DNA of 50,935 nucleotides, from the NCBI GenBank assembly GCA_038143065.1, contig JAYQLI010000010.1, forward strand, positions 1 through 50,935, written 5' to 3'. The translations under genes were made by a program, and so were the position numbers. Origin of the DNA: Rhodospirillales bacterium (GTDB lineage: Bacteria > Pseudomonadota > Alphaproteobacteria > Bin95). Positions 26,321 through 46,252 of the stretch are shown here, in pieces. Position 1 is the first letter of the stretch. Every line of letters begins with the position of its first letter. The notes under the pieces are model-generated. The model was given only the letters and a program-made list of their open reading frames with translations. It made no database searches and was not told where the DNA came from.

Positions 26321-26351
26321 TATCTCTGCCGGATTGTTGCCGGCAGAGATA
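26321..26351 (-). terminator. Stem-loop between the SBP and ATPase genes (attenuating or mRNA-stabilising)
   Basis: tatctctgccgg-attgttg-ccggcagagata is a perfect 12-bp inverted repeat just after the SBP stop. Confidence 0.6.
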
Positions 26352-26365
26352 CAGTTTTGTGACTA

Positions 26366-27391
26366 TTAGTCTGCCCAAGCGCCCGAGCATAGCTCTTCGA
26401 TTGTATAGAGCTTACCATCATAACCACGCAGCGCCGTGGTTTCGATCGTATCTTTGGTCACTGAGGGGTTTGGCGTGAAATTAATGTAATTGGCCAGTTT
26501 ACCTGTGTTCAGATATTCTTCTACCATTTTGATCGCCAATTGCCCTTCATGAAGCGGAGATTGCAGCGTTGTTCCAAACTGCTTACCTTCTTCGATCAGC
26601 TGTTTGTCACCATTACAGACCGTTCCAACAGCAATCACATCTTCGCCCATGACCATGCCAGCTTCTTCCAAAGCCTTGATACCGCCTGTCAAGATCGCAT
26701 CATCCATTCCATAAACGAAATCAATACTTTGCCCTTGCAAAGCCGCGATCATTTTCGCCGCGCCTTTGTAACCATTTGCTTGACCAAAGCCTTCATCCAC
26801 ATCGCCGATGATTTTCAAATCTGAGCCAGCGATGGCTTCTTTAAAGGCATTGATAGACAGGCCATAACCGCCATAAGAATGGGGGTATGACAAGGCAAGA
26901 ACGTTAAAGCCTGTTCCACCCGCTGCTTTTTTCGCTGCCGCTGCTTCACGCATCATATAACCGGCATTGCGCGCGCGCAAACGATCATCTGGACCTGCAT
27001 ATCCAAAAATATACTGTTTGTCCTGCTCGTTTGGCAGCTGGTTTATTTTCAAAACAGGTACGCCTGTTTTGGCCAAAGCGCGCAGCGAACCCAAACCTGC
27101 CACTGCATCAGAAGGCCACCAGATGAATACATCAGGCAATTGGCCAGTTGCCAAAACCTGTTGCACTTGTTGATCCTGTTCGGCTTGGTTGTATTGATTT
27201 TCATAAACTTTGATATCGAAGCCTTTAAGAGCTGCGGTTTCTTTAATCCCTTTAATGAAACGGCCAACATAAGCCTCCCCTGCGGGTCCGTTAAAAGAAA
27301 CAATGGATGCAGCCAGCACTGATGTGGCCATGCCGCCCAGTGCGACGCCTGCCGCAACCGCAACCGCGGCCACCTTATTTAAATAAGACAT
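26366..27391 (-). CDS. Sugar-type ABC periplasmic binding protein (RbsB-like fold)
   Basis: Signal peptide MSYLNKVAAVAVAAGVALGGMATSVLA; VYGMDDAILTGGIKALEEAG; TTLQSP..EG. Confidence 0.85.
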   Translation of the reverse strand: MSYLNKVAAVAVAAGVALGGMATSVLAASIVSFNGPAGEAYVGRFIKGIKETAALKGFDIKVYENQYNQAEQDQQVQQVLATGQLPDVFIWWPSDAVAGLGSLRALAKTGVPVLKINQLPNEQDKQYIFGYAGPDDRLRARNAGYMMREAAAAKKAAGGTGFNVLALSYPHSYGGYGLSINAFKEAIAGSDLKIIGDVDEGFGQANGYKGAAKMIAALQGQSIDFVYGMDDAILTGGIKALEEAGMVMGEDVIAVGTVCNGDKQLIEEGKQFGTTLQSPLHEGQLAIKMVEEYLNTGKLANYINFTPNPSVTKDTIETTALRGYDGKLYTIEELCSGAWAD

Positions 27392-27468
27392 GTTCGTCCT
27401 CCCAAAATGTTTTGCTACTTTCGCAGCTCTTTTAAACCAACAGCCAAAAGCCAAAATTCAGAACCATA

Positions 27469-27505
27469 AATTAGTCCAGTATGGATCAATTAAATTCATT
27501 TTGGA
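27469..27505. promoter_or_regulatory. Candidate operator boxes in the divergent SBP/SDR intergenic region
   Basis: tccagtatgga (27475-27485) and ttcattttgga (27495-27505) resemble the boxes at 22692-22717. Confidence 0.5.
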
Positions 27506-27602
27506 TGCATTCGAATTTTGCAGCGCGAAACCTTTTGACAATGATGGACCAGTAATTGGAACTGATTAGCAAATACACAAAGTGCATTGGGAGGCTTTTA
27601 CC

Positions 27603-28409
27603 ATGGACCCGCAAAGATTAGCAGGAAAAAACATATTAATTACCGGCGCAGCACGCGGCATGGGCGCGACCAACGCGGAACATTTTGCGCAACAGGGCGC
27701 AAATGTTTGCCTCGGAGATTTAGACATTGATTTAGCCAATAAAATGGCAGAAACCATCAATGCGCGCGGCAATGGAAAAGCGATTGCGGTTCAAATGGAT
27801 GTTACCAAACGCGAAGACAATGTGGCCGCCGTGGCCGCAACCGTGGATGCCTTTGGCATGATCAATATCGGCCTGTTCAACGCAGGTCTTAATAAGCCAA
27901 GGTTTTTTATGGATATTGATGAAGACAATTGGGATATGATCATGTCGGTCAACACAAAGGCGATGTGGCTTGGTATGCAAGAAACAGCCCGCCAAATGAT
28001 TAAACAGGGTCCGCAAGAACACGTATATAAATTGATCAATGTTGGCAGCATTGCCTCCCGCAAGCCATTGGTGGATGTGACCGTCTATTGCACTTCAAAA
28101 TATGGATGTTTGGCGTTAACGCATTGCGGTGCCGTCTCGTTGGCGGAACATAATATTACCGTGAACGGGTATGCTCCTGGCGTGGTTGTTACGCCTCTTT
28201 GGGAACAGCTTGACAAAGATTTAGTTGAAATTGGTTTCAAAGAGCGGGCAGGGCAAGCTTACGAAGATATCACCAATAATGAGCTTGTAATCAAACGCGT
28301 CTCCTACCCCGATGATGTGAAAGGCACAGCTGCATTTTTGGCCAGCCATGACAGCGATTATATGACCGGTCAAATGCTGCATATCGATGGCGGTTGGTGC
28401 ATTCAATAA
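27603..28409 (+). CDS. Short-chain dehydrogenase/reductase (polyol/acetoin dehydrogenase-like)
   Basis: TGAARGMG, NAG, YCTSK, PGVVVTPLW, TGQ..HIDGG. Confidence 0.9.
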   Translation: MDPQRLAGKNILITGAARGMGATNAEHFAQQGANVCLGDLDIDLANKMAETINARGNGKAIAVQMDVTKREDNVAAVAATVDAFGMINIGLFNAGLNKPRFFMDIDEDNWDMIMSVNTKAMWLGMQETARQMIKQGPQEHVYKLINVGSIASRKPLVDVTVYCTSKYGCLALTHCGAVSLAEHNITVNGYAPGVVVTPLWEQLDKDLVEIGFKERAGQAYEDITNNELVIKRVSYPDDVKGTAAFLASHDSDYMTGQMLHIDGGWCIQ

Positions 28410-28445
28410 AAATGCAGTTGAGCCGATAATTGAAAGTAGTAGAAT

Positions 28446-29312
28446 ATGAAATTAGGGGTGGCAGGCCTGGGCCGCATGGGCGTTCCCATGGCCAAAAATC
28501 TGATCAATGCTGGTTTCGATATTCAAGTCTGGAACCGCAACCCTGAGCGCAGCGCATCTTTTGCGACTGAAATGCAGTGCCAGATCGCTCAAACACCGGA
28601 AGCCTTAGCCTCTGCTTGCGATATCGTTATTACAATGCTTGCCGATGATGCCGCCTCTCAGGACGTCTATCTGGGTGAGGCGGGCTTATTAAAAGGCAAA
28701 AAAGCCAAAGTGTTCATCGAGATGAGCACTGTCAGCCCGAATTGGATCAACCGATTACAAAGCCAATCAAGCCGTGCTGCTATCATAGACGCGCCGGTTT
28801 CCGGCGCCACCCAAGCCGCTCAAGCGGGCAAATTGATGATTATGGTGGGTGGGTCAGAGGAAATAGCACAGCCTTTGCTACCAATTTTTGACGCTTTGGG
28901 CGAAAAAACGATCATTCTTGGCAAGCAATCTGCGGGTGCGACAATGAAGCTTGCGATCAATTCGGTGATACACAGCTTGAATCAGGCTGCCGCAGAGTCG
29001 CTTAACCTCGCCCAAGCCGCAGGCATTGAGCTTCCATTGGCCTTTGAAGCGTTGGAATCTTCGGCTGCTTGCGCGCCCATGTTACGCTATCGCAAACCAC
29101 TTTATTTGGATGAGCAGGCGCATCAAGTTACGTTCACCGTTGGCTTAGCAGCCAAGGATGTAGATCTTGCCACACGCTTGGCGCAGACCTTGGATGTTCA
29201 AATGCCGCAAGCAGAATTGAACTTAGGTATTTTGAATCAGGCTAGCCAAAATGGCTATGCCCACCGCGATATGGCCTCAGTAATCAGCTATCTGAAAAAG
29301 GAACACACATGA
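28446..29312 (+). CDS. Beta-hydroxyacid dehydrogenase (3-hydroxyisobutyrate dehydrogenase family)
   Basis: GLGRMG.PMA.NL, EMSTVSP, DAPVSG, MKLAIN, KDVDLA. Confidence 0.9.
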   Translation: MKLGVAGLGRMGVPMAKNLINAGFDIQVWNRNPERSASFATEMQCQIAQTPEALASACDIVITMLADDAASQDVYLGEAGLLKGKKAKVFIEMSTVSPNWINRLQSQSSRAAIIDAPVSGATQAAQAGKLMIMVGGSEEIAQPLLPIFDALGEKTIILGKQSAGATMKLAINSVIHSLNQAAAESLNLAQAAGIELPLAFEALESSAACAPMLRYRKPLYLDEQAHQVTFTVGLAAKDVDLATRLAQTLDVQMPQAELNLGILNQASQNGYAHRDMASVISYLKKEHT

Positions 29313-30020
29313 AGGCGGTTTTATTCGTAGGCGGCTGGCAAGGCCATAAGCCAATCGATTTTGCACAGTGGTGCTCTGACTTATTGATGGCGGACGGATA
29401 TGACGTTAAAATCTACGATACGCTAGTGCCTCTAGAGCAGCCCGAAACTTTATCTGATGTGAATGTCATCATACCCATTTGGTCAAGCGCGCGATCTTCT
29501 CATCAGCCCGAATTTGGGAATATGACAAAAAAAACAAGAGGATGGACTACTAAAATTGATTGCCTCGGGCTGCGGCTTGGCCGGATGGCATGGTCATATG
29601 GGGGATGCCTTCCGCGATCGCCCAACCTATCACTTTTTGATCGGGGGGCAATTTGTTGCCCATCCTCCAGGCTGGCCCGATAATCCTATTCCATCGGATG
29701 ATTTCGTTTCTTATGACGTAACAATTACCCGGCCCAATGACCCGATCGTAAAAGGTATCAAAAGTTTCGAGCTTTTTTCCGAACAGTATTTTATGTTGAC
29801 CGATGCCTCAAATGAAGTGTTGGCCACCACAACTTTTTCAGGCGATCATTTATGGTGGATCGAAGGCACTGTCGTTCCAGTAGTTTGGAAACGCAGATGG
29901 GATAAAGGTCGCATTTTCTATTGTTCAATCGGGCATCGCCTTGAGGATTTGAAAGTGCCAGATGTGACAGAAATCGTAAAACGTGGAATTTCTTGGGCTG
30001 CGCGAAAACTTGATGATTGA
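29309..30020 (+). CDS. ThuA-like domain protein (frameshift in A-run near 29530)
   Basis: GGWQGHKP, GLAGWHG, GGQFVAHP, SEQY, PVVWKRRWDKGRIFYCSIGH. Confidence 0.8.
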
Positions 30021-30127
30021 TGCTTTATGGAAAAAGAAAAGCTATAAGGTCGCCGATAAAACAGTTCCTAATACCACAGAGAACGCGCTGTTATTGCTTG
30101 ATCTTTCCTTCAGTCAAAACACATCAT

Positions 30128-30156
30128 TTGGAGAATGAACGGATTTATGATACAAT
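30128..30156 (+). promoter_or_regulatory. Sigma70-like promoter for the candidate sRNA
   Basis: TTGGAG (30128-30133), a 17-bp spacer, and TACAAT (30151-30156) preceded by TGn. Confidence 0.55.
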
Positions 30157-30159
30157 ATA

Positions 30160-30247
30160 TTGGGGCGGCACTCCTCCCATGCAAGCCCCAACAAACTGCC
30201 CGAGTGTCAAAGTTTCCTCATGGCTTCGATGCACGGGCTTTTTCTTT
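30160..30247 (+). ncRNA. Candidate two-hairpin small RNA with a CUCCUCCC loop (cuckoo/alpha-r14/CcsR-like)
   Basis: Hairpin 1 is ttggggc-g-gca-ctcctccca-tgc-aa-gccccaa. Hairpin 2 is gcccg...tttcctca...cgggc followed by a T-tract. A promoter lies immediately upstream. Confidence 0.6.
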
Positions 30248-30543
30248 AATTTTACTTTTAAACTTAGTTTGTCTGCAAACATCAAGACGGTTCACGGTAA
30301 AGGTAACGTAAAGCACCGGATCACAAGCGTTAAAAGTGACTAAAGCATATAATTTACGGGCCACTAATAAAGAACCATTCGCTAAAAGCAGTGTCACGGT
30401 TAAACTTTAAGTTAATGCACGAGTGGAAATGTACCCCCCAATAAATCTAAACCGCAAAAGCTAGAGGCCCTAGTCAAATGCGCATGGACCATGATCCTGC
30501 CCCCCGGTCTATATTCCCGCGGTTCGGCTTTAGATATTGGCCT

Positions 30544-30579
30544 AAAACAGTCATTCGATCAAAGTGCAGCGAATGGCTG
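30544..30579 (+). repeat. Hairpin-forming boundary repeat, copy A
   Basis: cagtcattcg-N12-cgaatggctg; gtgcagcgaatggct is identical at 37269-37283. Confidence 0.6.
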
Positions 30580-30580
30580 C

Positions 30581-32405
30581 GACATCGGTTCCACCACGTC
30601 CGATCACCAGCGCATGGCCGATCCCCGGTTTGTGGCTGATGCCGGCGATGAACTCAGCCCGGGGGCAGACACCATGCGTTCGATCAGGAACTGACTCGTG
30701 TCGAGGCGGACGTCATATCGGGTGACAGAGGCCTGAATTGCGCTGATGGCGTGGTCTAAACCTGCTGCGTCTTTGATATTCAGATGTACCGCCCCGGCCT
30801 GGTTTTTATGTGCAAGATCAGCATTAAGCAGTTTGACCGCCAGCGGATAGCCAAGAAGGTCTGCAGCAGCAATAATCTCCTCAACAGTGTCGGTCGCGTA
30901 GATCGGAACCGGAATGCCATGCTCTGCAAGCAAAGCCTTGCCCTCAGCCTCGTTCAGGGTGGTCAGCGGCGAATGAACGGCTGGTGTGGGCAACAGACGG
31001 CTCTCAGGGTCGGCCAGAACCTGCGCGCGTAAAACCGGATAGCGCGCCAGGGCGCGGAACGCGCTCAGCGTGTCGTCCAACCCTTGCAGCGTGACCACGC
31101 CTGCATCCGGCCAGCCGGAGCCGCAGATTAGCAGGCAAACCATCGGGGAAAACACTGGCGCAATCACCACGGGGCATTCCATGCGGTCGTTCAGCTGGAT
31201 CAACCCTTCAAGCGTCGACCACCAGACTTCGGCCACCTCCGGCTCACGCGGCCAGTCAACGAAATAAACAAGCAGATCACAGCGATCATCCATCAGGATA
31301 CCCATGCCATTATCGAGGTGTCCGGTGTGGACATCGCCGCCCAGGGCAGGTTCCAGTCGAGCGGGTTCATCAGAGAAACCAGCTCTAGGACGGTCTGGGC
31401 AATGCATTGCGTTGCGCCCAGTGGGTGAACTCAACCGACATCGCGCCCCTTTTCCCGATCATCGCGGCATAGCCGCGGAAGTTACCGCAGCAACAATACG
31501 GTTGCCTTTGGGGGGCTTGGGACTGCCCAGCAGTTTGAGCGCCTCAATCAGGGCCTGGGTGAGTTTGCTTCGACAATGGCCAACCGACGGAAAAGGGCTG
31601 ACCAGATTTCGTTGTCTACCGCCAGGGTGCCGGAGTGGCTTTGCGCCAGTTCAGCACTTTCCTGCGTGCCACCAGCCTTAAGCACCACAAGGGCAGCACC
31701 CTGTTTCACCGCACGCAGGGCGGCGGCGCTGAACGCGGCGATGTCCACGATCCCTTCCAGATAAAGCCCGATGGCACGCACGCGGGGGTCATCCAGCATA
31801 GCGTCGATGTAATCGGCCATTGAGAACGGCCTGATTGCCCATCGAAATGACATAGCCCAGCGGCAGGGCCTGTTCGACATTGGTCACCGAATAAGCGCCA
31901 TAACCTGACTGGCTGATCAGGGCGACACCATCGCCCGCAACAGGCGAAAACACGTTGTCCCGCCCCAAACGGCCATGCCATCAAACATGTTCATCACGCC
32001 CAGACAGTTCGGACCAACAAGCGCCAGGTCGCCCGCAGCCTCGGCCAACCGGGCCTGAAGGGCCGCGCCGTCCGCGCCTGTCTCGGAGAACTCGCCGACG
32101 AGAGAGACCGCCCCACCTGCACCCATCGAAAAGAGCTCTGCCACTGTATCAATCGTGCGTTCGCGCGATACGGCGATCAGGGCGGCGTCCGGAGGTTCGG
32201 GCAGATCGGCAAGGCTTGGCACGCAAGCCACACCAGCAAGTTCAGTGTATTTCGGATGCACTGCCCAGATTTGCCCGGTAAAGTCGGATTTTCGAGTGGC
32301 ATTGATACAGTCTTCAACCGCCCTGCCGCCGACAAAAGCGATGTGACGCGGTTTCAGGAGCCGCTTGAGGTTTTCGCGGCGAGCGCTGCAGGCGTTGTCC
32401 TTCAT
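30581..32405 (-). pseudogene. ADP-forming acyl-CoA ligase family protein (CoA-binding plus ATP-grasp), many frameshifts, C-terminally truncated
   Basis: LLKPRHIAFVGG, LVGPNCLG, GLYLEG, SHSGTLA, LNEAEGKALL, YPLAVKL...HKNQAGAV.L, LIERMV. The frame ends at LVIGRGGTDV directly against the boundary repeat. Confidence 0.8.
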
Positions 32406-33535
32406 TCTGTGAACTCCATGACCTCAAGGCCGCGAGGAATGCGTTTGTCAGCGTCAAAGAAAGGTAGTGAATGCAGGGCAAGCGGATGCTCATTACCGTC
32501 TCGACCCTTCACTGTGAAAGTATTGGCCGACATGGCCGCAGGTGTTTCGAAGAGGACATACCCGATCCCGTGCCGAGGGTTGGCGACGGCTCAAACGCTT
32601 TTACACGGCCAACTGCTACGCCGTTCGCATAACGGGCTCCCCCCACTTGATATCATTCGCCTCAGTCACGAAACCGGAAAAGCGTGGAGCACGTTCGGCG
32701 GCCTGCAAGGCGTCCTTCCGACGAAGTCATGACCAAAATCTACAAAGTCGCCCAGCTTCAGGTCAAACGGTGTCGTGTCCCAGCCCATGTCGGTGCCGTA
32801 GTTCATGATCCCCGCCTCGATCCGGCGCGGGTTCATGGAGTAGGTTGATAAGACCTCCATCCCATGCGGCGCGCCTGCCTCTAGCAGGTGGGACCATAGA
32901 GCGATTCCATCGACATTCGGGTCCATGTTGTAGACCTCAAAGCCCAGCTCGGCGGTCCAGCCCGTCCGGCTGATCAGAACGGGCTGACCGCCCATGGTAA
33001 CCTGTCTTGAGTGGTAATATTTGAACCCTTCTCGGTCCCCGCCATCAACACAGGCATCTAGTATCGCGAGGCTGGTTGGCCCTTGGATCTGAATTGCCCA
33101 GGCGCCCGGATCTCGAATTTCTAAGTCATAGCCAGGTTTCAATGCTTGGAGCCAAGTGAACACGTCACGATCCGCGTGGACATACCAAAACCAATCTTCA
33201 GCCAGCCGGAACACAACACCATCACAAGCAATGCCACCACCATGGTGGCACATAAGACCATAGCGCCCACGATCCACCGCCATTATGCTGACAGGCCGCG
33301 TGAACAAATAGTCAAGGAACTCCGCCGCATCCGCCCCCGAATTTCCAGCGGGACCTCGGCACATCGAAAATGCCTGCCTTGGTGCGCAACACCCGGTACT
33401 CTTCGGACGATGGGCGCTCAAATGTTACGGGCGTCAGCCGCCCTTCGTGGTCGCCATAAGCGGTGGTCAGGTCGCGCGTCGCCTGAACCATGGTGAACGC
33501 ACAGCGCGAGATTATGGGCAATACCGTTCGGCCAT
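32402..33535 (-). CDS. GcvT/DmdA-superfamily aminomethyltransferase (frameshifted)
   Basis: EYRVLRTKAGIFDVP, IQIQGP.S, ISRTGWTAELGFEVY, RRIEAGIMNYG.D, LPFFDADKRIPRG. Confidence 0.82.
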
Positions 33536-33641
33536 ATCCCGGCTCCTTTTGTTGTTGGTGTTAGTGGGTCAGCCGGGCATGAAATTGGCCAGTAATCGGC
33601 AGTTTTGAAGGGCGGGCGAGGTCGATGCCGGCTAATGATAG

Positions 33642-34260
33642 CTACTTCACCCCCGCCAATTGAAAACCACGTTGGCCATCCCACCGATTGCTTGAGATGG
33701 CATCGAGCAAAAACGCGGCGACATCTTCTTTCGTAATGGGCCGTGCGAATGTGCCATCGCCATGAAAACACGGTATTTCCCGTTTCCGGGTTTTTCCTTC
33801 AGGGCGGCGGGGCGGACCAACACATATGGGACTTCTCCCTCACGCGATATGCGGGCATCCGCCCGTTCATAATCCGCGAAACTCGAACGCCCACCGATCA
33901 TTTGCAGCATCTGTTTGACGACCCATGACGTGCCGCCACACCCAATGCTGCTGACAAACAGGCATTTTGGCGGATTGGGTTGCGCGGCGGCTGTTTGCAA
34001 AATCATTGCGTCGGCCGCTTTTTCCATGATCAACACACCTTTGACATTGCCAAGGCAACTGACAACGACATCGTCACCGAGAATGACCTTCGCGACATCG
34101 CTAGGGCTGGTGACGTCGCCTTGAGCGCAGAGAGATTTGTATGTTCGGTGAGTTTTTCGGGCGTTCTAACCAGGGCTACGACCTCGCATGACCGGCGGCA
34201 AGCGCCTTGTTAGAAAATGGCCACCAACCGCACCAGTCGCGCCAAAAAGTGCAATTTCAT
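33642..34260 (-). CDS. NAD(P)H-binding atypical SDR / flavin reductase-like protein (frameshifted)
   Basis: IALFGATGAVG, VVSCLG, YVLVRPAAL, ITKEDVAAF. Confidence 0.7.
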
Positions 34261-34289
34261 GTCTCGCCTCCTGTCTGGATGTTTGCCTG

Positions 34290-35935
34290 TTAACCCGGTA
34301 GGGCGCGGCTGATAATGGCGTCGAGGTCCAGCCCCTTGGGCAGGGTCCCGAATGCGCCGCGATAGCGTGGGGCGAGACGCGAGGCGCAGAAGGCATCGGC
34401 AACGGCGCTGTCGCCGTGGCAGGTCAGCAGCGCCCTTGTAAGGTCAGCGCCATCATCTCGGTCACCATGCGCATGCGGGTTTCCAGCCCGTCCGGATCCG
34501 CCAGTTCATCGCGCAGATCATCGATTGCACGGTCAGATTAGGATGGTTTCCGCGCGCCTTCTCCAGTTCCGCCATGAAGGCCGGGATCGCCTCGGTTCAC
34601 GCCCCATGGCCCGCAGCACGTCCAGCCCCATGACGTTGCCCGACCCTTCCCAGATCGAGTTGAGCGGCGCTTCGCGGTAAAGCCGGGGCATGATGCTCTC
34701 TTCGACATAGCCCGGACCGCCATGACATTCGAGCGCCTCGACCACCAGGCTCGGGCAGCGTTTGGTATTCCAGTATTTCGCTACTGCCGTGCCAATGCGG
34801 GCCAGCGCCGCCTCGGTCGGGTCATCGGCGTTGTCCATCGCGCGCGCCATCCGCAAACCCGAGCGCCAGCGCCGCCTCGACCTCGACCGCCATGTCGGCC
34901 AGAACATTCTGCATCAGTGGCTGCTGGATCAGGCGTTTCTGAAAGACCGAGCGGTGCGATGTATGATGCAACGCCTGCACCAAAGCCTGCCGCATGATTC
35001 CGGCCGAGGACATAGCACAATAAAGCCGGTTGCCAGTGACCATCTCAATGATCGTGCGGATGCCACGGCCTTCCTCGCCGACCATCACACCGTATGTGTC
35101 CTGAAACTCCATTTCGGTCGACGCGTTGGAGTGATTGCCCAGTTTGTCTTTCATCCGCTGGATAAACAGAGTGTTGCGCGTGCCATCGGGTCGCCATCGG
35201 GGCACGAGGAAGCAGGAAATTCCCATAACTTCGGTATTGGCCAGTACCAGAAATGCATCACACATCGGGGCCGAGCAGAAGAATTTGTGCCCGGTCAGCA
35301 GGTAGCCGTCACCGATCGGTCGGGCCACTGTCGAATTGGCGCACATCCGACCCGCCCTGTTTCTCGGTCATGAACATGCCGATCATGGCGCCGGTCTTTT
35401 CAGCCGCCGGAATGTCGCGCCTGTCATATTGCGTTGACAGAAGGCGCGGCATCCATTCCTCCGCCAAATACGGTGCCATGCGAAGCGACGGCACAACGGA
35501 ATAGGTCATCGCCATCGGACACATCACGCCGCCCTCGGGCTGGCTGAACATATAGGTTAGAACAGACTGGCCTACATGTCCTGCATTGTCCTCGTTATGC
35601 CAGGCGAAATTATGCACCTTATTGGAAATCGCGAGATGCATCAGGTCATGATAAGCGGGATGAAACTCTACCGCGTTGATCCGCATGCCATAGCGATCAA
35701 AGGCGCGCAATTCCGGCCCATGTCGGTTGGCTTGGTTCGCTTTCTCAAAGGTCTCATCCAGCCCGGTGAGATGTCCGACATGGGCAAAATGCCCGGCATG
35801 AATGGCCCCGCCCATGTGTGATGCCCAGTGTCTCAGCGCACGATCATTCCCCCACAAGTCCTGATCGCCCATGTGTGGTGGCATGTTGATGACCTCATGG
35901 GTCGGCAAATGCGAAATCGGATCGCGTGGTGTCAT
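34290..35935 (-). CDS. AidB-like acyl-CoA dehydrogenase (frameshifted)
   Basis: THEVINMPP, VEFHPAYHDLM, CPMAMTY, MTEKQGGSDV, GHKFFCSAPMCD, KDKLGNHSNAS.E, EALECHGG.GYVEE, REAPLNSIWEGSGNV. Confidence 0.88.
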
Positions 35936-36029
35936 GATGTCTCTCCCTGCAGTGAGAGTAGATGTCCAAACCGGTCAGCGGCAAACCCAATTTCTTGATC
36001 TCTGTGTTCAGATCAGATTAAACAGAAAC

Positions 36030-36906
36030 ATGCGATTTCGAGCCTTCGACAGTCTCAACATCTTCCGTACCGTTGCCGAGAAAATGAGTTTCACGGCGGC
36101 AGGGGATGCCTTGAACATGTCCAAGGGCGCGGTGAGCTACCAGATCGCGAAGCTGGAGGACGAATTGGGCGTGCGCCTGTTCGAGCGCCGCCACACTCAT
36201 ATCTGCCTGACGACGGAAGGCACGCGCCTGAAAGATGCAGCGGCACGGCACCTGAGTCATATCGAGACCGTAATGGACGAGATAAGATCAACCGTTGAAG
36301 AACCACTGTGCGTGGGCGCCCACAGCTGGTTCATCGCTCGGTGGCTCGGCCCGAGGCTGTCCGACTTCACCCGCGCCAATCCCGATATTTCGCTCAGGTC
36401 GAACCGATCAATACCAAGGCCGATCTGCAGAACCGCGCCCTCGATCTGTCGATCTTCTGGTGCGATCCTTCAGCCGAGGACATGGACGTTGAAGTGCTGT
36501 TCAAATCCAATACCAGGCCTTTGGCCAGCCCGGAAATCGCAGCCCGGGCCGAAGCACTAGGCTTGGAGACCGCTGTTCGGGAAATTCCGCTCTTGCCGGA
36601 TGCATCCGGCATGGCAGCCTGGCGCGACTGGCATGACATCGCGGGACTGACATTCGCGCCGAAAAAGAACGCACTTTCGCTGCCGGACGCCAACAGCCGC
36701 CTTCAGGCCGTCATTGCTGGAAATGGATTGGGGATGCAGGATGCGTTTGCAGAGCCAGAGATCGAAAGCGGTCATCTCGTCTGGATCTCGGATCTTGCGC
36801 TGACAAACTTCGCTTACTGTATCTCGCTGCCAACAAAGGGGAACATTTCGGCAGCCGCAGAACTCTTCAGAGACTGGATAAGGGCGCAGGACTTCTGGAA
36901 ACCTGA
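36030..36906 (+). CDS. LysR-family regulator (GcvA-like), frameshift near 36400; 3' end approximate
   Basis: SFTAAGDALNMSKGAVSYQIAKLEDELGVRLFER, WLGPRLSDFTRANPDI; divergent from the acyl-CoA dehydrogenase operon. Confidence 0.88.
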
Positions 36907-36971
36907 ACGAATGCTTCCGGCTGTGAAACCTCCGAGCTATTCGTCCGTGTCGAACGAGGTTAGGTGCCACC

Positions 36972-36997
36972 AAAGCAGTCGTCGGTTCAATGCGCAG
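36972..36997 (+). repeat. Boundary repeat, partial copy B
   Basis: aaagcagtcgtcggttcaatgcgcag matches 30544-30569 at 19 of 26 positions without gaps. Confidence 0.45.
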
Positions 36998-37238
36998 AAA
37001 GAAAGGCCGGTCATTTCTCGGCCAACACAATGTGCCAGCTGTTCTTGGACATATACAAAGCAATTGGCCTCAAGGACGCCTCAAGTCATTCAGGTCGTAG
37101 GACCTATATTACCCGTTTGGCCAACAAGGGTGTAGGCGTGCGATTGCGGCGCTTGCAGGGCATTCACATATATCCACAACACAGAGATATATCGATGTGA
37201 ACTCTGACCAGTTGAGCGAAGCAGTGGAGCTACTTTAG
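36998..37238 (+). pseudogene. Tyrosine recombinase C-terminal fragment
   Basis: GHFSANTMCQLFLDIYKAIGLKDASSHSGRRTYIT (H-x-x-R); after a frameshift, LAGHSHISTTQRYIDVN (second His and catalytic Tyr). No N-terminal half. Confidence 0.85.
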
Positions 37239-37248
37239 CAATCAGGCC

Positions 37249-37284
37249 TTAGCGGACTGTAGGGCAAGGTGCAGCGAATGGCTA
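37249..37284 (+). repeat. Boundary repeat, copy C
   Basis: ttagcggactgtagggcaaggtgcagcgaatggcta keeps the same register as copy A and starts 10 bp after the recombinase stop. Confidence 0.55.
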
Positions 37285-37498
37285 CTAGGAGCCCAACCTG
37301 TGAGTTCTTTTTTGCCGCGTGCGCTCGCAGCGGAAAAACTGCCGCTCATGCATGGATCAGAGTACTGCCGCGTGACGAGAAGAGACGCCATTCATTTGGA
37401 GCGCATCAGGTTTCCTTATACAATACTCGAGCGGCAAGGTTTTGTTGTAATTTGACATGCCAATGCGAACGTTTGGTTCCAAATAATTTGTGGATTTG

Positions 37499-38342
37499 TC
37501 AATCAAAGAGCTTGTTGCGGGTCCAGTCGAAGGTCCCGGTGTCTCGTTCCTGCACCGCCTGCTTCCAACCGACTTGCTCCACGCGGGCTTTGAAGTTTAT
37601 GCCTTCGGGCGAATGGCGAGTGATGCCGTCGAACACGGTGGCAAGGCGCTGCGTCTCGTTGATTTTCTCTTCGACCGCCGCGTTGATCACCATCTTCTGC
37701 ATGGCCAGTTGGTTGATCGGCACGGATGCCATACGGACGGCCAGCGCTTCGACCTCGGCATCAAGCTGATTGTCAGGCACGGATTTAAGCACCAACCCCA
37801 TCTCGGCGGCTTCGACGCCGGTTATTTTGTCACCCGTGAACATCATGCGCTTGGCCTTTTCAGGCCGAGCCGATGCACCCACATTGCAGTTGTCGGACAG
37901 CCCCAAACGCGGGTGGGCATGTAGCCGATCTGTGCCGTGTCCCCCATGATCGTGAGATCGGCACACAGCGCGATGTCCGAGCCGCCCGCAACGGCGAAGC
38001 CATGCACCTTGCAGATCACCGGTTTCATCGCCCGGAAGAGCGACATGAAAGCCTGCGTGTTAGCCCACATGCACTGGAAATCCTGCATCGGGTCCCAGGG
38101 CATGTCCTGCACCACCTTGTTGGAACCATTGCGCTTGGCGTAATGGGTAAGATCGTAGCCCGCGCAAAGGCATTTCCTGCGCCAGACAAAACTATCACAT
38201 GTATGTCACGATCATGGTCGGCCTGTGCAACTGCTGCCGCTAGTTCGCAAGGCAGATCATCGTCGATGGCATTCATTACCTCAGGTCGGTTCAGGGTGAT
38301 CCGCCCGATCCGGCCATCTTTCTCGAACAGAACCTTTTCCAT
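37499..38342 (-). CDS. Enoyl-CoA hydratase/crotonase family protein (frameshifted)
   Basis: ITLNRPEVMNAI, KPVICKVHGFAVAGGSDIALCAD, MFTGDKITGVEAAEMGLV. Confidence 0.85.
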
Positions 38343-38344
38343 AC

Positions 38345-39781
38345 TTACCCCCAATCGCTAACGGCCTTGACCTCAAGGAACTCCTCAAGACCCCAGGCAC
38401 CACCTTCACGGCCATTGCCCGACTGCTTCATACCGCCAAAAGGCGAGCCCGCGCCGCTGAATTTGCCGTTCATCTCGACCATACCAGATCTTAGCTGTCG
38501 CGCCACGCGACGAGCTCGTGCCTTGTTCGAGGTCTGTACATAATTCGTAAGACCATAGGACGTGTCGTTCGCCAAGTTGATTGCCTCTTCTTCGCAGTCA
38601 AAGGGTGTTATACATAGCACAGGGCCCGAAGATTTCTTCCCTCCAAATCGTCATATCTTGCGTGACGTCGGCAAAGATTGTGGGACGCACAAAGTAACCG
38701 TGTTCAGCCCGTCGGGACGACCAGACCACCCGCAATCAATTTGGCACCTCATCTATGCCACGCTTGATCAGGAATTGGATCTTGTTCAACTGTACTTTAG
38801 ATACAACCGGACCGATCTGACGGCCCTCAATATTTGCTGGACCGCCCTCTGTTTTCTCCGCCACTGTACGGGCTGTTTCAACGGCATGCTCGTATATCGC
38901 GCGGTCGACCAACATCCTGGTTGGTGCGTTGCAGGACTGGCCCGAATTGTTTAAGCAGTGCCGAACGCCTCGCGTGACGGCCTTTTCATCGGCATCAGCA
39001 AATATGATGTTGGCTCCTTTGCCTCCCAGTTCGAGGCTAACGCGTTTCACGGTATCTGCCGCAGCCTTGCTGATCGCCGACCCCAGCTCGGGCGTTGAAC
39101 CCGGTGAAGCTGACCATGTCCACGTCCGGGTGCGCGGTGAGATGCGCTCCAACACCGGCACCATCACCGTTCACCAGATTAAATATCCCAGGCGGAAAAT
39201 CTGCCTCATCAATCATTTCAGCCAACAGAATGGCGCTGAGCGGGGACAGTTCCGAGGGTTTCAGCACTACCGTGCAGCCCGCGGCCAGCGCCGGGGCGAC
39301 CTTCAGCATCACCTGGTTCATCGGCCAGTTCCATGGGGTGATCAGGGCACAGACACCGGGACGGGTCGTGTATAATCATATCGCCGGGTGCGTGATCGCC
39401 CAAAGGACGTTCAAAGACAAAAGCTTTGGCTGTCCGAATAGTGTTTTTCAGATGTCCTGCTCCAGAGCCGACCTGTGCGGTCTTTGCCAGTGTGATAGGC
39501 GCTCCCATTTCTCTGCTGATAGCCTGCGCCATGTCTTCGGCCCGTGTCTTATAGACTTCCATCAACCGCTCCAATGCGGCGATCTTTTCCGAAGGGTTGG
39601 TTGCCGCCCAGCTTGGAAAGGCGTCCTTAGCCGCAGCGACGGCCATGTCGACATCAGCGACGCCACCCAAAGTGATCGTGGCAATCTTTTTTTCTGTGGA
39701 CGGGTTCTCCACCGGCATTTCGCGCCCGTCGATCGAGATGACCCATTGGCCGTTGATATAGTGTTTGGTTGTGTCTTGCAT
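38345..39781 (-). CDS. Aldehyde dehydrogenase (frameshifted)
   Basis: [54 protein letters not shown]. Confidence 0.88.
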
Positions 39782-39796
39782 GGTGATTCCTGTTAG

Positions 39797-41401
39797 TCAG
39801 AGTTCAGTATATTCCCCGGCGACAAAACGATCGCGGAGAACAAATTTCTGGATTTTGCCTGAGCCGGTTAGGGGGAACTCCTCGACCTGCACCCAAACAT
39901 TCGGCGTTTTTTGTGGTGACATATTTGCGCGGCAATGCGCGTGCAGCGTACCCTTGTCGAGCAGTCCTGTGCTCCGGATGAACGCGCCTATAACCTCTCC
40001 CCATTTTGGGTCTGGCAGGCCAACGACAGCGACCTCGGCCACGCTTGCGTGTTCCAACAGGCAGTTTTCAATTTCAGCGGGAAAATGGTTCTCGCCTCCG
40101 CGGATGATCATTTCTTTCACACGACCCGTGACTGTGACGTAGCCTCGTTTATCCATTCGACCAAGATCGCCGGTGTGCAGCCAACCCATTGCGTCTATGG
40201 TCTCGGATGTGGCCTTCAGGTTGTCGTTGTATTCCAGCATGACGCAGGGGCCGCGGGCACAGATTTCCCCGACCTCTCCTACGACGACGGCGCAATTGTT
40301 ATCGACACTGCGAATTGAGACCTCAGTCTGAGCTACCGGCTGGCCTGCCGTGTTGCAGATGTCGTCAATGGTGTCGTCTAGATGATGTTGTGTGATCACC
40401 GGACAATGCTCGGTCTGGCCATAGAGGGTGGAAAACCTGGCACCCATCAAGTTCTGTACCCTGCGCACCAATTCGGGCGCCACCATTGAGCCGCCGCAGC
40501 TGACGAGCTTCAGAGCCGACATGTCTCGTGGACGCGCATTTTGTGCATCGAGCAAGGCCACCACCATGGTCGGCACGCCAAGGATGATGTCAGCGCCGCT
40601 CGCTTCCAACTGGTCAAGCACGACATCCGGGTCAAACAGGCTGACCAACACCATTCGGCACCCCGCCTGAAGGCATCCAAGCGTGACCATCCCGCAGCCC
40701 GAGGTGTGAAACATCGGCATGATGTTGACCCAGGTGGTCGCCTCGGTTGTCCCGCAGCGACCCGCGTAGAACCGGGCGTTGTTGACCAGTCCGCGATGGC
40801 TCAGGACTGCCCCTTTGGGAAAACCGGTGGTGCCGGAGGTATACTGGATCATCGCCGCGTCGCCTAGATCGGCATTGGGCAAAGCAATCGGGCGGGAGCC
40901 TTGTGTGTAAAGCGCTACGCTTTCCATGTCCGTGACTTCGCGAACCGATGGGATGCTCGCGGCGACTTCAGTCCCAATTTGGCTCATGGGGTTGCCGCGG
41001 AATTCTTTGACAAGGAAAAGTGCAACCGCGCCGGATTGTTCCAGCACGTAGGCTAGTTCGCGTGCCTGAAAGGCCGGGTTAGCAGTCACCAGTACTAGAC
41101 CGGATAGGGCACTGGCATATTCCAATAGGACCCATTCTGGGCTGTTGGGCGACCAAACTACTACCCTTTCGCCAGGCGCAAACCGTGTGGAGAGCGCCAT
41201 GGCTAGTCTCTCAGCATTTTGCATAAGTTCGGCATAGGTCCAGCGGCGCCCCTTGGTGCCGTTCTGTTTGACTTCGACCAAGGCCTCCGCTTCTGGTCGT
41301 GCCGCCGCGACCTCGCGCAGCAATGCTCCGATGGTGATGTCTCGCGTTTCTATGTCGGACTGAGGCTGAGCATGGGAGGTGGTGAGGTCTAAGTCATACA
41401 T
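39797..41401 (-). CDS. AMP-forming acyl-CoA synthetase
   Basis: YTSGTTGFPKG, YGQTE, WLHTGDLG, GRVKEMIIRGGEN, TGSGKIQK. The likely start is MYDLDL at 41401. Confidence 0.92.
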   Translation of the reverse strand: MYDLDLTTSHAQPQSDIETRDITIGALLREVAAARPEAEALVEVKQNGTKGRRWTYAELMQNAERLAMALSTRFAPGERVVVWSPNSPEWVLLEYASALSGLVLVTANPAFQARELAYVLEQSGAVALFLVKEFRGNPMSQIGTEVAASIPSVREVTDMESVALYTQGSRPIALPNADLGDAAMIQYTSGTTGFPKGAVLSHRGLVNNARFYAGRCGTTEATTWVNIMPMFHTSGCGMVTLGCLQAGCRMVLVSLFDPDVVLDQLEASGADIILGVPTMVVALLDAQNARPRDMSALKLVSCGGSMVAPELVRRVQNLMGARFSTLYGQTEHCPVITQHHLDDTIDDICNTAGQPVAQTEVSIRSVDNNCAVVVGEVGEICARGPCVMLEYNDNLKATSETIDAMGWLHTGDLGRMDKRGYVTVTGRVKEMIIRGGENHFPAEIENCLLEHASVAEVAVVGLPDPKWGEVIGAFIRSTGLLDKGTLHAHCRANMSPQKTPNVWVQVEEFPLTGSGKIQKFVLRDRFVAGEYTEL

Positions 41402-42184
41402 CGCTGAAATCGCCTCCTCGACCCTTGCCATTGGAGAAGCGGGCTGCACCCTCAATACCAATGCTGACTTCATCTTTGCTGCCCTTCCATTCCTGCTGCA
41501 GCGCTTCACGCATTGAGAGCCCATGTTGGGTCCGCACCGAACGTCTATCTGCGCGCATGCAGCTTTGCGGGAAACGGGCGATGTCATGGGCAAGGGCTTC
41601 GGCTTTGGCACGTGAGTTGCCTTCGGGCACGACGTATTCGCACAGGCCAATCCGGAGCGCCTCATCCGCATCGATGCGGCGCCCGGTCAAGATCAGGTCC
41701 ATTGCGCGGCCTTCACCCACCAAACGCGGAAGACGTACCGTACCTCCGTCGATGAGTGGAATACCCCAACGGCGGCAGTAGACACCCATGAAGGCGTTTT
41801 CTTCCATCACCCGGATATCGCACCAAAGCGCAAGTTCCATACCACCTGCCACGGCAGGCCCCGATACTGCGGCGATCACGGGTTTGCTGAGTTCCAACCT
41901 GCTGGGCCCCATGGCCGCCATCGGTGGCTCACCCTCATTCGGAAAGTCAAACGGATCAAGCGCTTCGGCACCAGCAAGGAGGCTGCATGCTTCAAATCCC
42001 AGCCAGCACAAAAAGCACCGCCTTCGCCCCAAAAAACAGCAACGCTTGCTGTTTCATCTGCATCAAAGGACTGGAATGCTTCAAATAGTGCCTTGGCGCT
42101 TTCGGGGTCCATGGCATTACGCGCCTCTGGTCGAGAATGTATTACGGTCCAGACGGGGCCGTCCTTTTCAATTCGTACACTCAT
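41394..42184 (-). CDS. Enoyl-CoA hydratase/crotonase family protein (frameshifted near 41980-42030)
   Basis: RPEARNAMD, AFCAGWDLK, KPVIAAVSGPAVAGGMELALWCD, DGGTVRLPRLVG. Confidence 0.88.
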
Positions 42185-43795
42185 TGCAGAACCTCTCCAT
42201 AGTTGCCTGCAATGAATTTATCACGAATGGCAAATTTCTGTACTTTACCGGAGCCTGTCAGAGGAAAGTCCGGCACATGCACCCAGACAGATGGCGTTTT
42301 TTGTGCGGACAGAAGCGCCCTGCAGTGGGTACGCAAATCGGCTACGTCAAGCGGTTGGTCGGACAGGATGAATGCCGCGATCACCTCTCCCCATTTCTCG
42401 TCCGGTAAGCCGACTACGGCGACTTGTGCCACATGCCTGTGGGTCACCAAAGCCGCTTCGATTTCAGCTGGAAAATGGTTTTCGCCGCCGCGAATGATCA
42501 TGTCCTTAACACGACCCGTCACTCGCACGAACCCTTGGGCGTCCATTGTGCCCAAGTCTCCGGTATGGAGCCATCCGTCGCTATCAATGGCCGCGGCGGT
42601 TGCTTCTGGATTTTCGTTATAGCCGATCATCACTGCATAGGATCGCGCGCAAATCTCGCCCACGTCCCCTATTGGAAGAACCTGATTATCTTCAGGTGAA
42701 CGGATTGAAACCTCTGTCCACGGCAGCGGCTGGCCGGCTGTCTCCACGATCTGCTCAAGTGTCGCTTCAATGGGGTTTAGACAGATCATTGGGCTGTGTT
42801 CAGTTTGTCCAAATGCGCTAAGAAGATGACATCCCAAACGGTCCCGAACCCGGCGGACGAGATCGGGTGGCACCGGAGCGCCGCCGGTTGTTATGACCTT
42901 AAGCGAGGACATATCGCGCGGTATTTTTTCTAGAGAGTCTAGAAGATTAAACAGCATGGTGGGCACTGCAAAACAGGTTGTAACGCCCTGTTCCTCAATT
43001 AAGCGTGCAAAGACATCTGCATCGAACCTCTTTATTAGTAGCATTTTACATGCAGCTTGGAAGGCACCCTAAGGCCCCGGTCGCACAGCCTGCAGTATGA
43101 AATAGAGGCATGAAGTTAGCCCAGACCGAATGCGGACCAACTTGCTTACGTGTGCAGAACAGGCGTGCGTTGTTTACTAAATTCTTATGGCTGAGTACCG
43201 CGCCCTTTGGAAATCCCGTTGTTCCCGATGTGTATTGGATCTGCGCGGCATCATCTGGCTGAACATCTGGCAGCACTTTTGGCCGTTCCCCAGTGGCGTA
43301 GAGCGCATCCTCGTTTTCCAAGTTGATGATCTCGCGCAACGCTGTGTTGCCGCTTATCGCCTGGTGTGCAATTTCAGCCATAGGGTTACCCCTAAACTCA
43401 TCAACCATAAATAGGGCGACTGCTCCAGACTGTTCCAGAACATATTTGAGTTCAGAGACCTGAAAGGATGGATTGGCTGTCACGAGAACTAAACCCGCTA
43501 GACCACAGGCATATTCTATGAAAATCCACTGCGGGATATTGGGCGCCCAGACGACGACCTTCTCGCCTGCCTCAAAACGCGAAGAAAGCGCTTCAGCTAG
43601 GTGCTCGGCTTGTTCTAGCAGCTCTCCGTAGGTCCACGATTGGCCACAATCACCGTTGTCTGCGATATCCACCATCGCAACAGCGTCAGGGTAGCTGGCC
43701 GCAGTCTTACGCAGCAAGTCTCCAACCGTAATGTTTAGGACTTCAGCATCGCTCTGCGCGGGGAAGTGCGAAAGGTTGAGCTTCACATGGTACAT
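42181..43795 (-). CDS. AMP-forming acyl-CoA synthetase, paralog of 39797-41401 (frameshift near 43055)
   Basis: YTSGTTGFPKG, FGQTE, WLHTGDLG, IIRGGENHFPAEIE, TGSGKVQK. Confidence 0.9.
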
Positions 43796-43797
43796 GT

Positions 43798-45017
43798 CTA
43801 TTCGGCCGCGATCGGGTTGGTTGGGATATCCACCAGTTTGCCCCTAGGGATCAAGCGGTCAGCGTCATACATTGGCAGAGTACAGAGCTCGCCTTCTTGA
43901 ATAGAACCGTCTGCACAGAGCACATTTACCTTGGTGCCGGGTCCTATGGCGGGGTCGTCCATACGAACAATGCAAACACCGCAATTTTGGTATGGTGAAT
44001 ATCCTGACGAGCAAACGCGTCCAACAACAGTTTCGCCCACCCACATTACGCGACCCAATTGAGAAACACCCCCCATTACACGCATACCCCAGGTTTTTGA
44101 TGATTTATCTGCAACCTCTAATGCTTTGCGTCCGATGAAATCACGATTGTCGAAGTCGACAAAATTCCCAAGTCCAGCTTCGAAAGGAGTGGTTTCCGCC
44201 CCAAAGTCCGATCCTGCATTTAATAAGCCAGCCTCAATCCGACGTGCGCGGAATACCGGTGTCCCGGTGAGTAAGATATGGAACGCCGAACCGACCTCCA
44301 TGATCCTGTCGCCAATGGCCGCAATATCTGTGTCTGGAAGTAAGTATACTTCCCAGCCAAGTTCGTTAGTAAAGCCTGAACGGCTGATCCAACAAGTCTG
44401 ACCAGCAATAGAAACCTCGGCGCAGTCGAAATAGCGGAATGGATCTGGCATTGGTCTGTCGAGAACAGCGGCAAGTAGCTCCAGTGAACGTGGGCCCTGT
44501 ATCTGACTTACCCAGACATTCGGATCATGGATTTTTACATCCAACCCTTCGGCATGTGCTTTGTACCAGCTGAAAAGATCGCCGTCTGCCTGTGCCATCC
44601 AAAAACGATCTTCAGATAATCGCAGCAATACCCCGTCTGTGATCATCCCCCATCATGATAGCATGCGAATTGATATGAGCACCGTCCTGGTTTGACCTTT
44701 GATACATTACGAGTGAACACTTTGTTCAAAAGTGTTTCAGCATCTGGTCCGCTTATCTCAATTGGTAACTCACCTGTGTGACGAAAAATAACATTCGTAC
44801 GTACCGCCCAATACATTTCATCGTCTGACGCAGTGCTTAGTGCTTCGGGTGTTAGTCGAGAGTTGTAAAGCGTATATTCTGGATCATGTGGCAGCTCCAT
44901 GTAACTCAGTGGGTGTGCTGGCATTGTACGCGCAAGTTCGCGCGGGCGCGCGCCCTTGTTCAGCAAAGCCTTGGCAACGAAACGATAGTGGGAGAGGTCG
45001 GTTGTCATGTTATTCAC
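43798..45017 (-). CDS. GcvT/DmdA-superfamily aminomethyltransferase (frameshift in C-run near 44648)
   Basis: EISGPDA, DGVLLRL, QIQGPRS, ISRSGFTNELGWEVY, RRIEAGLLNAG.D, LPMYDADRLIPRG. Confidence 0.85.
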
Positions 45018-45160
45018 CGTTCAGAGTTGTTAGACGCCTACGGGTAATCTTCGAAAAAGATAGATGATTACCACGCATAAAAAAATACATATTTGGTTTT
45101 GTGGCCTTGGCGCAAATCTAATGATTTGCACAAATCGTTCGAAAAAATTAGACAGTATTA

Positions 45161-46045
45161 ATGCGCTTTCGTTCTTATGATTCTCTCAAGATTTTCGATA
45201 CCGTTGCCCGCAGTCTGTCGATGACCAAGGCAGCGGACGAAGTGCATCAATCGAAAGGGTCGATCAGTTACCAGGTGGGCAAGCTTGAAGCCGACCTCGG
45301 ATTTCGCCTGTTTGAGCGTGCGCACGCTACACTGGAACTCACAGAGGAAGGGCGCAGGTTGTGGCATGTGTCCCAAACGGCCCTGAGTCAGATCGATCGT
45401 GAAATCGAAGACTTGCGTGGCACTACCTCCGGTGCCGTGACTATTGGTGCATTGACCTACTTCTCGTCACGCTGGCTGTCGCCAAGGCTCACCCGCTTCT
45501 TCGAGGCCAATCCCGGTATCAGCCTACGGATCGAACCGCTCAACTCCGTTGACATGATGAGATCCTTGAAAATCGACATGGCTGTACTTTGGGGAATTGG
45601 CGGCTGGGAGGGTCATAAAAGCGAACTTCTTCTTTCCCTGCCTGCCGTTCCAACCGCAAACCGCGTACTTGCAGAGCAGGTAAAGCAGCTTGGGTTGGCT
45701 GAGGCGGTCAGACAGCTTCCGCTCTTGGGAGACAGCTCCGGCGATGCGGGTTGGCGCGCCTGGCACAAAGCCGCGGGGTTACCTTACGCGCCCAGCCGGG
45801 CCAGCTTAACGATCCCGGACTCGAACAGCCGCGTTCAGGCGGTGGTGGATGGCCAGGGGATCGCCCTGTGGGATGATTTGGTTGCGTCTGAATTTGGGAA
45901 TGGAACGCTTGTTAGATTATCTGATGTCAGAGTTGAAAACGCGGGTTACTTTCTCGTTTTTACGGATCAGCCGATGTCTCAAAGCGCAGAGGCATTCCTG
46001 GACTGGTTGGTGGTTGAAAACGATCGCAGCGAGATGCCGGCCTAA
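45161..46045 (+). CDS. LysR-family regulator (GcvA-like), intact
   Basis: SMTKAADEVHQSKGSISYQVGKLEADLGFRLFER, WLSPRLTRF..ANPGI; divergent from the catabolic operon. Confidence 0.92.
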   Translation: MRFRSYDSLKIFDTVARSLSMTKAADEVHQSKGSISYQVGKLEADLGFRLFERAHATLELTEEGRRLWHVSQTALSQIDREIEDLRGTTSGAVTIGALTYFSSRWLSPRLTRFFEANPGISLRIEPLNSVDMMRSLKIDMAVLWGIGGWEGHKSELLLSLPAVPTANRVLAEQVKQLGLAEAVRQLPLLGDSSGDAGWRAWHKAAGLPYAPSRASLTIPDSNSRVQAVVDGQGIALWDDLVASEFGNGTLVRLSDVRVENAGYFLVFTDQPMSQSAEAFLDWLVVENDRSEMPA

Positions 46046-46252
46046 AATCCTGCGGGTGTGCGGCGCTTGAACGGCTGGTTTGGAGAAATCTGGCCCGTTG
46101 CGAGTCCCGTGCCGTATCTGCGAAGGATTTCTGCGTCCGCAATAGCTGCAACTGCAGTCAAACAGCAGCGCGTTGGCTCATTGTCCAAGCAGAGCTACAA
46201 CACACATCTAAGATTATGACTTTCGGCAGAGCTCTGCTGTTGAAACTTTTCC

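Follow-up and report, generated by a model that had tools for sequence, protein, structure and literature searches.

Three Copies of a Repeat in the Window

The DNA considered here, a stretch of 50,935 nucleotides from an assembly assigned to the Rhodospirillales (G000) and hereafter called the window, holds a truncated ligase gene, a high-GC segment, the remnant of a tyrosine recombinase gene and a block of catabolic genes, and beside these lie three copies of a short repeat, which we call sites A, B and C (Table 1). Judging from the sequence comparisons set out below, these copies belong to a family of sites that very probably serve as the crossover sites of a site-specific cassette system.

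A first-pass annotation, made from the letters of the window alone, had reported three copies in the same register, and profile and register scoring show that they are real, with C whole and both A and B cut. The positions described for them also hold: site A adjoins the cut in the ligase, which ends at 30580, site B adjoins the point at which the recombinase has lost its N-terminal half (about the first 109 of 188 codons), and site C lies directly 3' of the recombinase, beginning a few bases after the stop at 37238. The GC content does step up after A, from 0.44 (29501-30500) to 0.587 (30501-31500), and the stretch that A and C were said to share exactly is the 15-mer GTGCAGCGAATGGCT, at 30544 and 37249. 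When up to 3 mismatches are allowed, A and C remain its sole matches in the window; at that laxity 2.0 matches are expected by chance, so the window count alone is no proof.

A profile iterated from seven seeds taken from this assembly detects A (E 2e-07) and C (E 1.4e-08) and, at E<0.05, retrieves 25 copies from the assembly, every one on small contigs; at that threshold none lies on the 2.86-Mb main contig (C35), which may be another organism. Site B is missed by this profile and is weak with a broader one (E 0.83). At 36972, however, its arm and spacer stand in exact register and reach 23.4 bits; because a score of 20 is reached nowhere on either strand of the main contig, B is a genuine truncated copy. 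The unit is larger than the 36 nt first delimited, with the crossover core of C just beyond them.

Anatomy and Distribution of the Site

The anatomy was derived from 81 distinct units. Each consists of a 12-bp arm (AWAGCGGACMTT), a 16-nt spacer ending in GCAGCG, an inverted 12-bp arm, a 6-bp core and a degenerate arm, with a repeat period of 46 bp. The core is GAGCCC in 34 of the 81 units, CCGCCC in 9 and GTCCGC in 3. Complementarity between the inner arms is 0.577, compared with 0.579 in shuffled pairings (n=152), so that there is no covariation. This favors double-stranded sites over attC-like folding and points to the arms being double-stranded binding sites for protein; a hairpin or single-stranded DNA model was rejected on the same ground. 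The hairpin of the first-pass annotation therefore holds at the level of the consensus only, and a role for it as a functional fold is not supported.

The box motif of attC sites is RYYYAAC...GTTRRRY. It was found in 0 of 190 units, with none at A, B or C. The inner arms of XerC/D sites, whose consensus is ATAA-6-TTAT (PMC5790767), likewise occur in 0 of the 190, and Rfam gave 0 matches at E<=5 in 29500-38500.

The unit pattern occurs in 173 of 301 genomes of Rhodobacteraceae (the family of G053), with up to 58 units per genome and three control matches in all. Elsewhere it was found in 7 of 250 genomes sampled from the class as a whole and in 6 of 36 genomes from the order of G000. The sites are intergenic, with only 8 of 76 distal clusters inside open reading frames (ORFs), compared with 72% for random places. 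The genome with 58 sites (G170) carries same-strand arrays in which gene blocks of 1-3 kb or more separate compound sites of 114-115 bp, whose four cores always come in the same order.

Similarity between Loci Ends at the Core

The evidence for crossover comes from loci that are alike on one side of a site and not on the other. We compared 52 pairs from 20 of 34 loci with GAGCCC 40-75 nt past the recombinase stop; the pairs were selected to be 88% or more identical as far as the core. Pair identity is 0.94 before GAGCCC and then 0.41, 0.28, 0.29, 0.25 and 0.25 after it, and homology continues past GAGCCC in 0 of the 52 pairs. The similarity of the window to L155, L148, G268 and G235 ends at the same place (37295-37296), right after the core of C. 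Among 210 switching pairs, 49 break 57-65 nt past the stop, at the GAGCCC core, and 23 at 12-14 nt, at the first core.

The same holds away from the recombinase gene. Homology stops in 40 of 40 informative distal clusters (of 76 in all), with 247 stops against 9 read-throughs, whereas in control intergenic gaps it stops in 136 of 349 informative cases (of 1477), with 333 stops against 388 read-throughs. The same modules stand between sites in different settings (for example C31 5343-11778, also in L164, and C8 2881-10355, also in C12), and in G235 two islands with both flanks 95% alike hold differing cargo of ∼11.6 and 1.7 kb that begins at the site.

Several points weigh on the other side. 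As many as 67 of the 210 switching pairs diverge at the stop of the 188-residue recombinase gene itself, and control gaps taken whole are also rich in stops (280/448; 773 stops compared with 306 read-throughs). The breakpoint pairs are non-independent, many of them sharing the end of the gene for a 413-residue integrase (see below), and an AidB-like homolog was found in four genomes, with a site in the retrieved region of only one. Nevertheless, the distal clusters and the pairs that end at the core tie the sites strongly to synteny breakpoints, and these are very likely recombination sites of a gene-capture system other than attC, as the first-pass annotation had inferred.

A 207-Residue Recombinase as Candidate Enzyme

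By inspecting short PF00589 matches in site-rich genomes, we found a family of 207-residue tyrosine recombinases (PF00589 E 1.9e-17 for G229:C1:2845706) that are 26% identical to the 188-residue family. The gene is present in 107 of the 301 Rhodobacteraceae genomes, and sites occur in 86 of these 107, compared with 87 of the 194 genomes without it (odds ratio 5.0, p 1.5e-9, uncorrected for kinship). Among the 30 best loci, 19 have a core upstream of the gene and 16 have one downstream, in each case at a fixed distance, and 14 have both. The paired cores face outward and span 853-857 bp, delimiting an 856-bp unit whose outer arms include the arm type of C. Two such loci, L296 and L297, are 97% alike between the cores and 20-42% alike beyond both. 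Members of the family are found on 378 plasmid records, and eight viral loci were retrieved; the PDB holds no close relative of the protein (best E 2.6e-05). In L287-L316, inspection by eye also shows, within the unit, a conserved short inverted repeat ahead of the ribosome-binding site and, past the stop, a hairpin resembling a terminator.

Bracketing of a gene by its own sites commonly marks it as coding for the cognate enzyme. Given that the sites are crossover sites, the layout and the genome-level association make the 207-residue family their probable enzyme; that a cassette system exists with both these sites and this enzyme is, as a joint claim, somewhat less secure, although we favor it.

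A number of results count against this assignment. There is no 207-residue gene at E<=1e-30 in 87 of the 173 site-bearing genomes, including 6 of the 20 richest; five of those six, G170 with its 58 sites among them, have no full-length copy when rechecked at 1e-6, and G000 has none at E<=1e-6. Tyrosine-recombinase-like ORFs make up 5 of the 929 within 1.5 kb of sites, and clustering of these 929 ORFs gave no dominant partner gene. The full 46-nt unit rises above background downstream in 13 of the 30 loci and upstream in 2, what lies upstream being mainly a core and outer arm, and the 30 loci are the best matches to one query that was picked for its adjacent site. Finally, the contigs listed from four runs, contigs being an assembly product that drops rare forms, contain no circular or excised form and no joint linking sites.

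Alternatively, the sites may be real crossover sites served by another enzyme or enzymes, such as the island integrase of 413 residues, a recombinase of the host, or relatives of the 207-residue protein too diverged for the query to detect. Site-rich genomes without the 207-residue gene favor such a reading, as do the sites near many different integrases in G229 and G069 and the 413-residue gene itself, which is found in 85 of 160 loci of the 188-residue gene and often has a site of the CCGCCC-core type at its stop. We nevertheless consider it unlikely. None of the 190 units has inner arms of the Xer type, no further recombinase family recurs beside sites, and cores at fixed distances on both sides were found for the 207-residue gene alone. 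Orphan arrays, moreover, can outlive a mobile enzyme, as is the case for CALINs (PMC8618304).

The Recombinase Gene beside Site C and Its Island

The remnant next to C belongs to a 188-residue family that consists of the catalytic domain only (PF00589 E 1.8e-27; 2279 homologs at E<=1e-20). The first-pass annotation had linked the repeat to this recombinase, and as far as position goes it was right: a site starts within 60 bp past the stop in 45 of 155 loci, in 41 of them on the same strand (51 of 153 with a tolerant score). One genome, G268, has 14 sites and 9 matches to the family but no 207-residue gene at E<=1e-30. These observations would suit the 188-residue protein as the cognate enzyme, with C as an attI-like primary site.

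The link does not extend to the level of genomes. The gene is present in 19 of the 301 genomes (at most 11 candidates were scored per genome), and sites occur in 12 of these 19, compared with 161 of the 282 genomes that lack the gene (odds ratio 1.3, p 0.64). Roughly two thirds of the loci that carry it have no site next to it. The family also has a palindrome of its own, unrelated to the site, ∼150 bp upstream of the gene in 110 of 123 loci (AAAACCTCATAGAA-6-TTGTATGAGATTTT; L010-L169 and G000 C47:41014), and it is immediately to the left of it that related loci part most often. This palindrome is a candidate operator or element end of an island family formed by the 188- and 413-residue genes.

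The 413-residue integrase gene is nearly always convergent where it is found near the 188-residue gene. In five empty islands (L029, L032, L035, L054 and L072) the two stops overlap and there is no site, and at G000 C47:41160-42953 the two genes again stand tail to tail. Filled islands hold up to ∼8.8 kb of cargo between the two stops, from which we infer a cargo slot, and as many as nine 188-residue loci come from one genome. Since islands can be empty of sites, and sites adjoin the 413-residue stop as well, it is improbable that the 188-residue protein is the enzyme, as had been proposed; the gene beside C is probably a bystander.

Proposed Mechanism

We propose that A, B and C are attachment-site copies of a Rhodobacteraceae site-specific gene-cassette system. 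A site would consist of successive 12-bp arms that bind protein, set around 6-bp cores and repeating every 46 bp. Strand exchange would most likely take place at the core, chiefly GAGCCC, so that a conserved left part becomes joined to any cassette starting with a degenerate right arm. The likely enzyme would be the 207-residue, catalytic-domain-only tyrosine recombinase, mobile as its own 856-bp cassette and acting in trans. The 188-residue gene would be part of an island whose slot before the convergent integrase gene often holds such cassettes, which would explain why C follows its stop. Of all this, the comparisons show the site family, its anatomy, the position of the switch, the sharing of modules and the 856-bp unit. 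The 207-residue protein would be the one to catalyze the reaction, and exchange between like cores, circular intermediates and inversion of the 856-bp unit would follow from the general chemistry of tyrosine recombinases.

The least probable alternative is a passive repeat of the repetitive extragenic palindromic (REP) or miniature inverted-repeat transposable element (MITE) kind that gathers in islands and is rearranged through homology or folding with no dedicated recombinase, for although the high copy number, intergenic position, consensus-level palindrome and imprecise junctions A and B would fit, the copies are too divergent for homologous recombination yet switch with base precision at the core, their arms do not covary, Rfam gave no match, and none lies on the main contig at E<0.05, even if that contig may be another organism. 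No RAYT or transposase family recurs among the 929 ORFs near sites, in a clustering that was not a search aimed at them.

On the preferred reading of a cassette system, the presence of the site in more than half of the sampled Rhodobacteraceae, the base-precise switch and a candidate enzyme offer a testable answer to how variable islands are assembled in abundant marine bacteria. A 207-residue recombinase with several natural core specificities could be a compact tool for cassette exchange. A bolder extension, which we offer tentatively and regard as rather doubtful as a whole, is that roseobacters own a functional counterpart of the integron, in which an 856-bp mini-recombinase cassette moves itself and compound sites carry the cores GTCCGC, CCGCCC, CGGCCC and GAGCCC in fixed order. 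Each core would pair only with its like, allowing ordered addition, excision and replacement of cassettes, and unrelated islands and plasmids would be loaded from one shared pool. The window itself is a damaged example, in which the 207-residue gene, the likely enzyme, is not found.

Junctions at Sites A, B and C

The first-pass annotation had treated gene-truncating junctions as typical of the repeat. Gene truncation is not the normal outcome of the site system, however, for elsewhere the switch is at the core and the sites are intergenic, and the junction at C is a normal one. The 12-mer of B that resembles a second arm fits the arm consensus and is one base off the native recombinase sequence, so B is a site fused to a look-alike within the 188-residue gene, through mis-targeted recombination or microhomology. 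This junction is bridged by a contig from one short-read run (X3 record 27, 35357-37094), and X10 record 5 ends 24-37 nt past B.

Site A is less straightforward. Here the two sides, which overlap by 1 nt, are joined 3 nt short of the core, and no piece among the short-read contigs listed spans 30580. Contigs from three runs (X3, X10 and X14) carry the ligase past 30580 with other DNA, the loose end encoding the next residues of P0121, and one X3 contig runs from 30580 on into a canonical GAGCCC core of site A. A 20-nt piece of this continuation has no match in G000 or in loci L010-L169. Compared with the short-read contigs, 30580-32839 (2.26 kb) has 28 gaps and 18 substitutions, whereas pieces left of A have 0-1 gap/kb. 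These data make an assembly or read chimera, with no biological truncation and independent of how the sites themselves are read, only slightly less than an even prospect. The evidence on A comes from the pieces listed, with 236 loose ends and 893 pieces beyond them, rare variants are lost from contigs, and the strain in the runs is a related one (∼96-99% alike), so that a strain-specific deletion is equally possible. Contig C17, a 96% copy of window 14122-30014, diverges at 30014, where there is no site, and is therefore uninformative on A. We put the odds between a strain-specific deletion and an artefact at about even. Differences in read depth among the three segments fit modularity; depth is no copy number, however, and hence was not used.

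Features of the Window and Its Host

The sites and the genes around them are listed in Table 1. At the far end of the cargo behind C lies a possible decayed fourth cluster, and a further weak half-unit match at 49942-49975 (16.3 bits, a score of 16 being reached at four positions on the main contig) is probably due to chance or a decayed site.

Table 1. Positions of the sites and neighboring genes in the window
Feature	Position	Strand	Remarks
Site A	30538..30580	+	First core variant 30538-30543; inner arm 30544-30555; 16-nt spacer 30556-30571 ending GCAGCG; second arm 9/12 nt; GAGCCC core gone
Site B	36966..37013	+	Inner arm 36972-36983 and spacer in register; no core
Second-arm-like 12-mer of site B	37002-37013		2 nt out of register; overlaps recombinase codons
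Site C (complete)	37243..37306	+	First core CAGGCC 37243-37248; arm 37249-37260; spacer 37261-37276; arm 37277-37288; crossover core GAGCCC 37289-37294; degenerate cargo-side arm 37295-37306
Possible decayed fourth site cluster	46020..46190	+	GTCCGC core within; weak, by eye; half-unit score only 9.1; not detected by the hidden Markov model
Acetate-CoA ligase family gene	30580..32405	-	Frameshifted; cut at ~residue 614/700
Rest of high-GC A-B segment	32666..36910	both	Boundaries approximate owing to frameshifts; minus strand: aminomethyltransferase-like, NAD-binding and AidB-like acyl-CoA dehydrogenase genes; plus strand: LysR regulator gene
Tyrosine recombinase remnant	37002..37238	+	~Codons 110-188 of a 188-residue catalytic-domain-only protein that normally has a 413-residue island integrase as partner
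Catabolic cargo behind C	37307..46045	.	Enoyl-CoA hydratases, aldehyde dehydrogenase, AMP-binding ligases, aminomethyltransferase-like gene, LysR; presumed single cassette

The assembly is rich in frameshifts and is probably a composite bin. No near-identical stretch of at least 800 bp is common to any small contig and the main contig, the sole long matches to the latter being C39 and C49 (84-89% alike), which by their size and double placement would be ribosomal RNA operons. Several small contigs, C17 among them, are strain variants of one another. Given the composite bin, and because the closest named relatives of the window recombinase are mostly Rhodobacteraceae, the host is uncertain and is probably a roseobacter. 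A search for the remnant in 40 relatives of G000 gave distant matches in only three, and no close copy of the A-C segment was found in the order of G000. Within the family sample, at E<=1e-60 and with two candidates scored for each genome, matches were limited to the AidB-like gene and the tail of the recombinase, so that the arrangement around A was not recovered in intact form.

Elsewhere in the window, a low-GC (∼35-43%) cluster of chemotaxis type (1990-12768; CheW, Hpt, CheR, CheB, MCP and adenylate/guanylate cyclase) is flanked by two repeated remnants. Three related remnants of ∼1 kb, 82-92% alike and containing pieces of DUF2924 and an IS6-family transposase, lie at 1-1090, 12940-14096 and 46250-47276, with many further copies on other small contigs. 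A frameshifted IS3-family element (47868-49065) has copies 90-95% alike on C12, on C23 and in G268. A 70-bp non-coding stretch at 30143-30214 appears in other contexts in three runs, with loose ends on both sides, and has no Rfam match.

Comparison with Known Systems

Short tyrosine invertases of the FimB/FimE type are ∼190-210 residues long, consist of the catalytic domain only and act on one promoter switch. The 207-residue gene resembles them in lying between inverted cores, a layout that would permit inversion, but the FimB/FimE model NF007371, whose cut-off is 222, gives only 16.6 and 20.2 bits, and the sites described here are multi-copy and bound exchangeable cargo rather than a single promoter switch. 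The inverted repeats at the variable locus of phage P2, on which Nilsson and co-workers are said to have reported in 2004 (cited in PMC9122126), are reportedly short recombination-type sites to which no enzyme is known to have been assigned; the likeness is that of short recombination-type sites at variable loci.

Integrons and CALINs (PMC4889954, PMC8618304) are alike in having same-strand arrays in which sites alternate with small gene blocks, a tyrosine recombinase, orphan arrays with no enzyme nearby, and the same modules across hosts. In contrast, the IntI model TIGR02249 gives 31.5 bits for the 188-residue protein and 23.5 for the 207-residue protein against a cut-off of 265, and here there are no attC boxes and no structural covariation. 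The cassettes here can be multi-gene (up to ∼11 kb) and in either orientation, and the likely enzyme is itself a cassette. In PMC4889954, 243 alphaproteobacterial genomes are reported to contain no integron, In0 or CALIN, an absence that the surveyors termed extremely puzzling.

The pdif modules of Acinetobacter plasmids, bounded by XerC/D sites, share with the present system double-stranded arm-core-arm sites with a 6-bp center that stand at module ends, and an enzyme that acts, or here would act, in trans (PMC5790767). Here, however, the Xer inner arms are lacking, the 12-bp arms are in tandem at a 46-bp period with four recurrent cores, and the candidate enzyme is mobile and not the XerC/D of the host. 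Within the openly accessible literature the site and the family are apparently undescribed, although one of the families in PMC3414803 may match. Together these comparisons, made at the level of sequence, indicate that the system carries the defining features of neither integrons nor pdif modules, and that it is in function that it would resemble integron cassettes or pdif modules.

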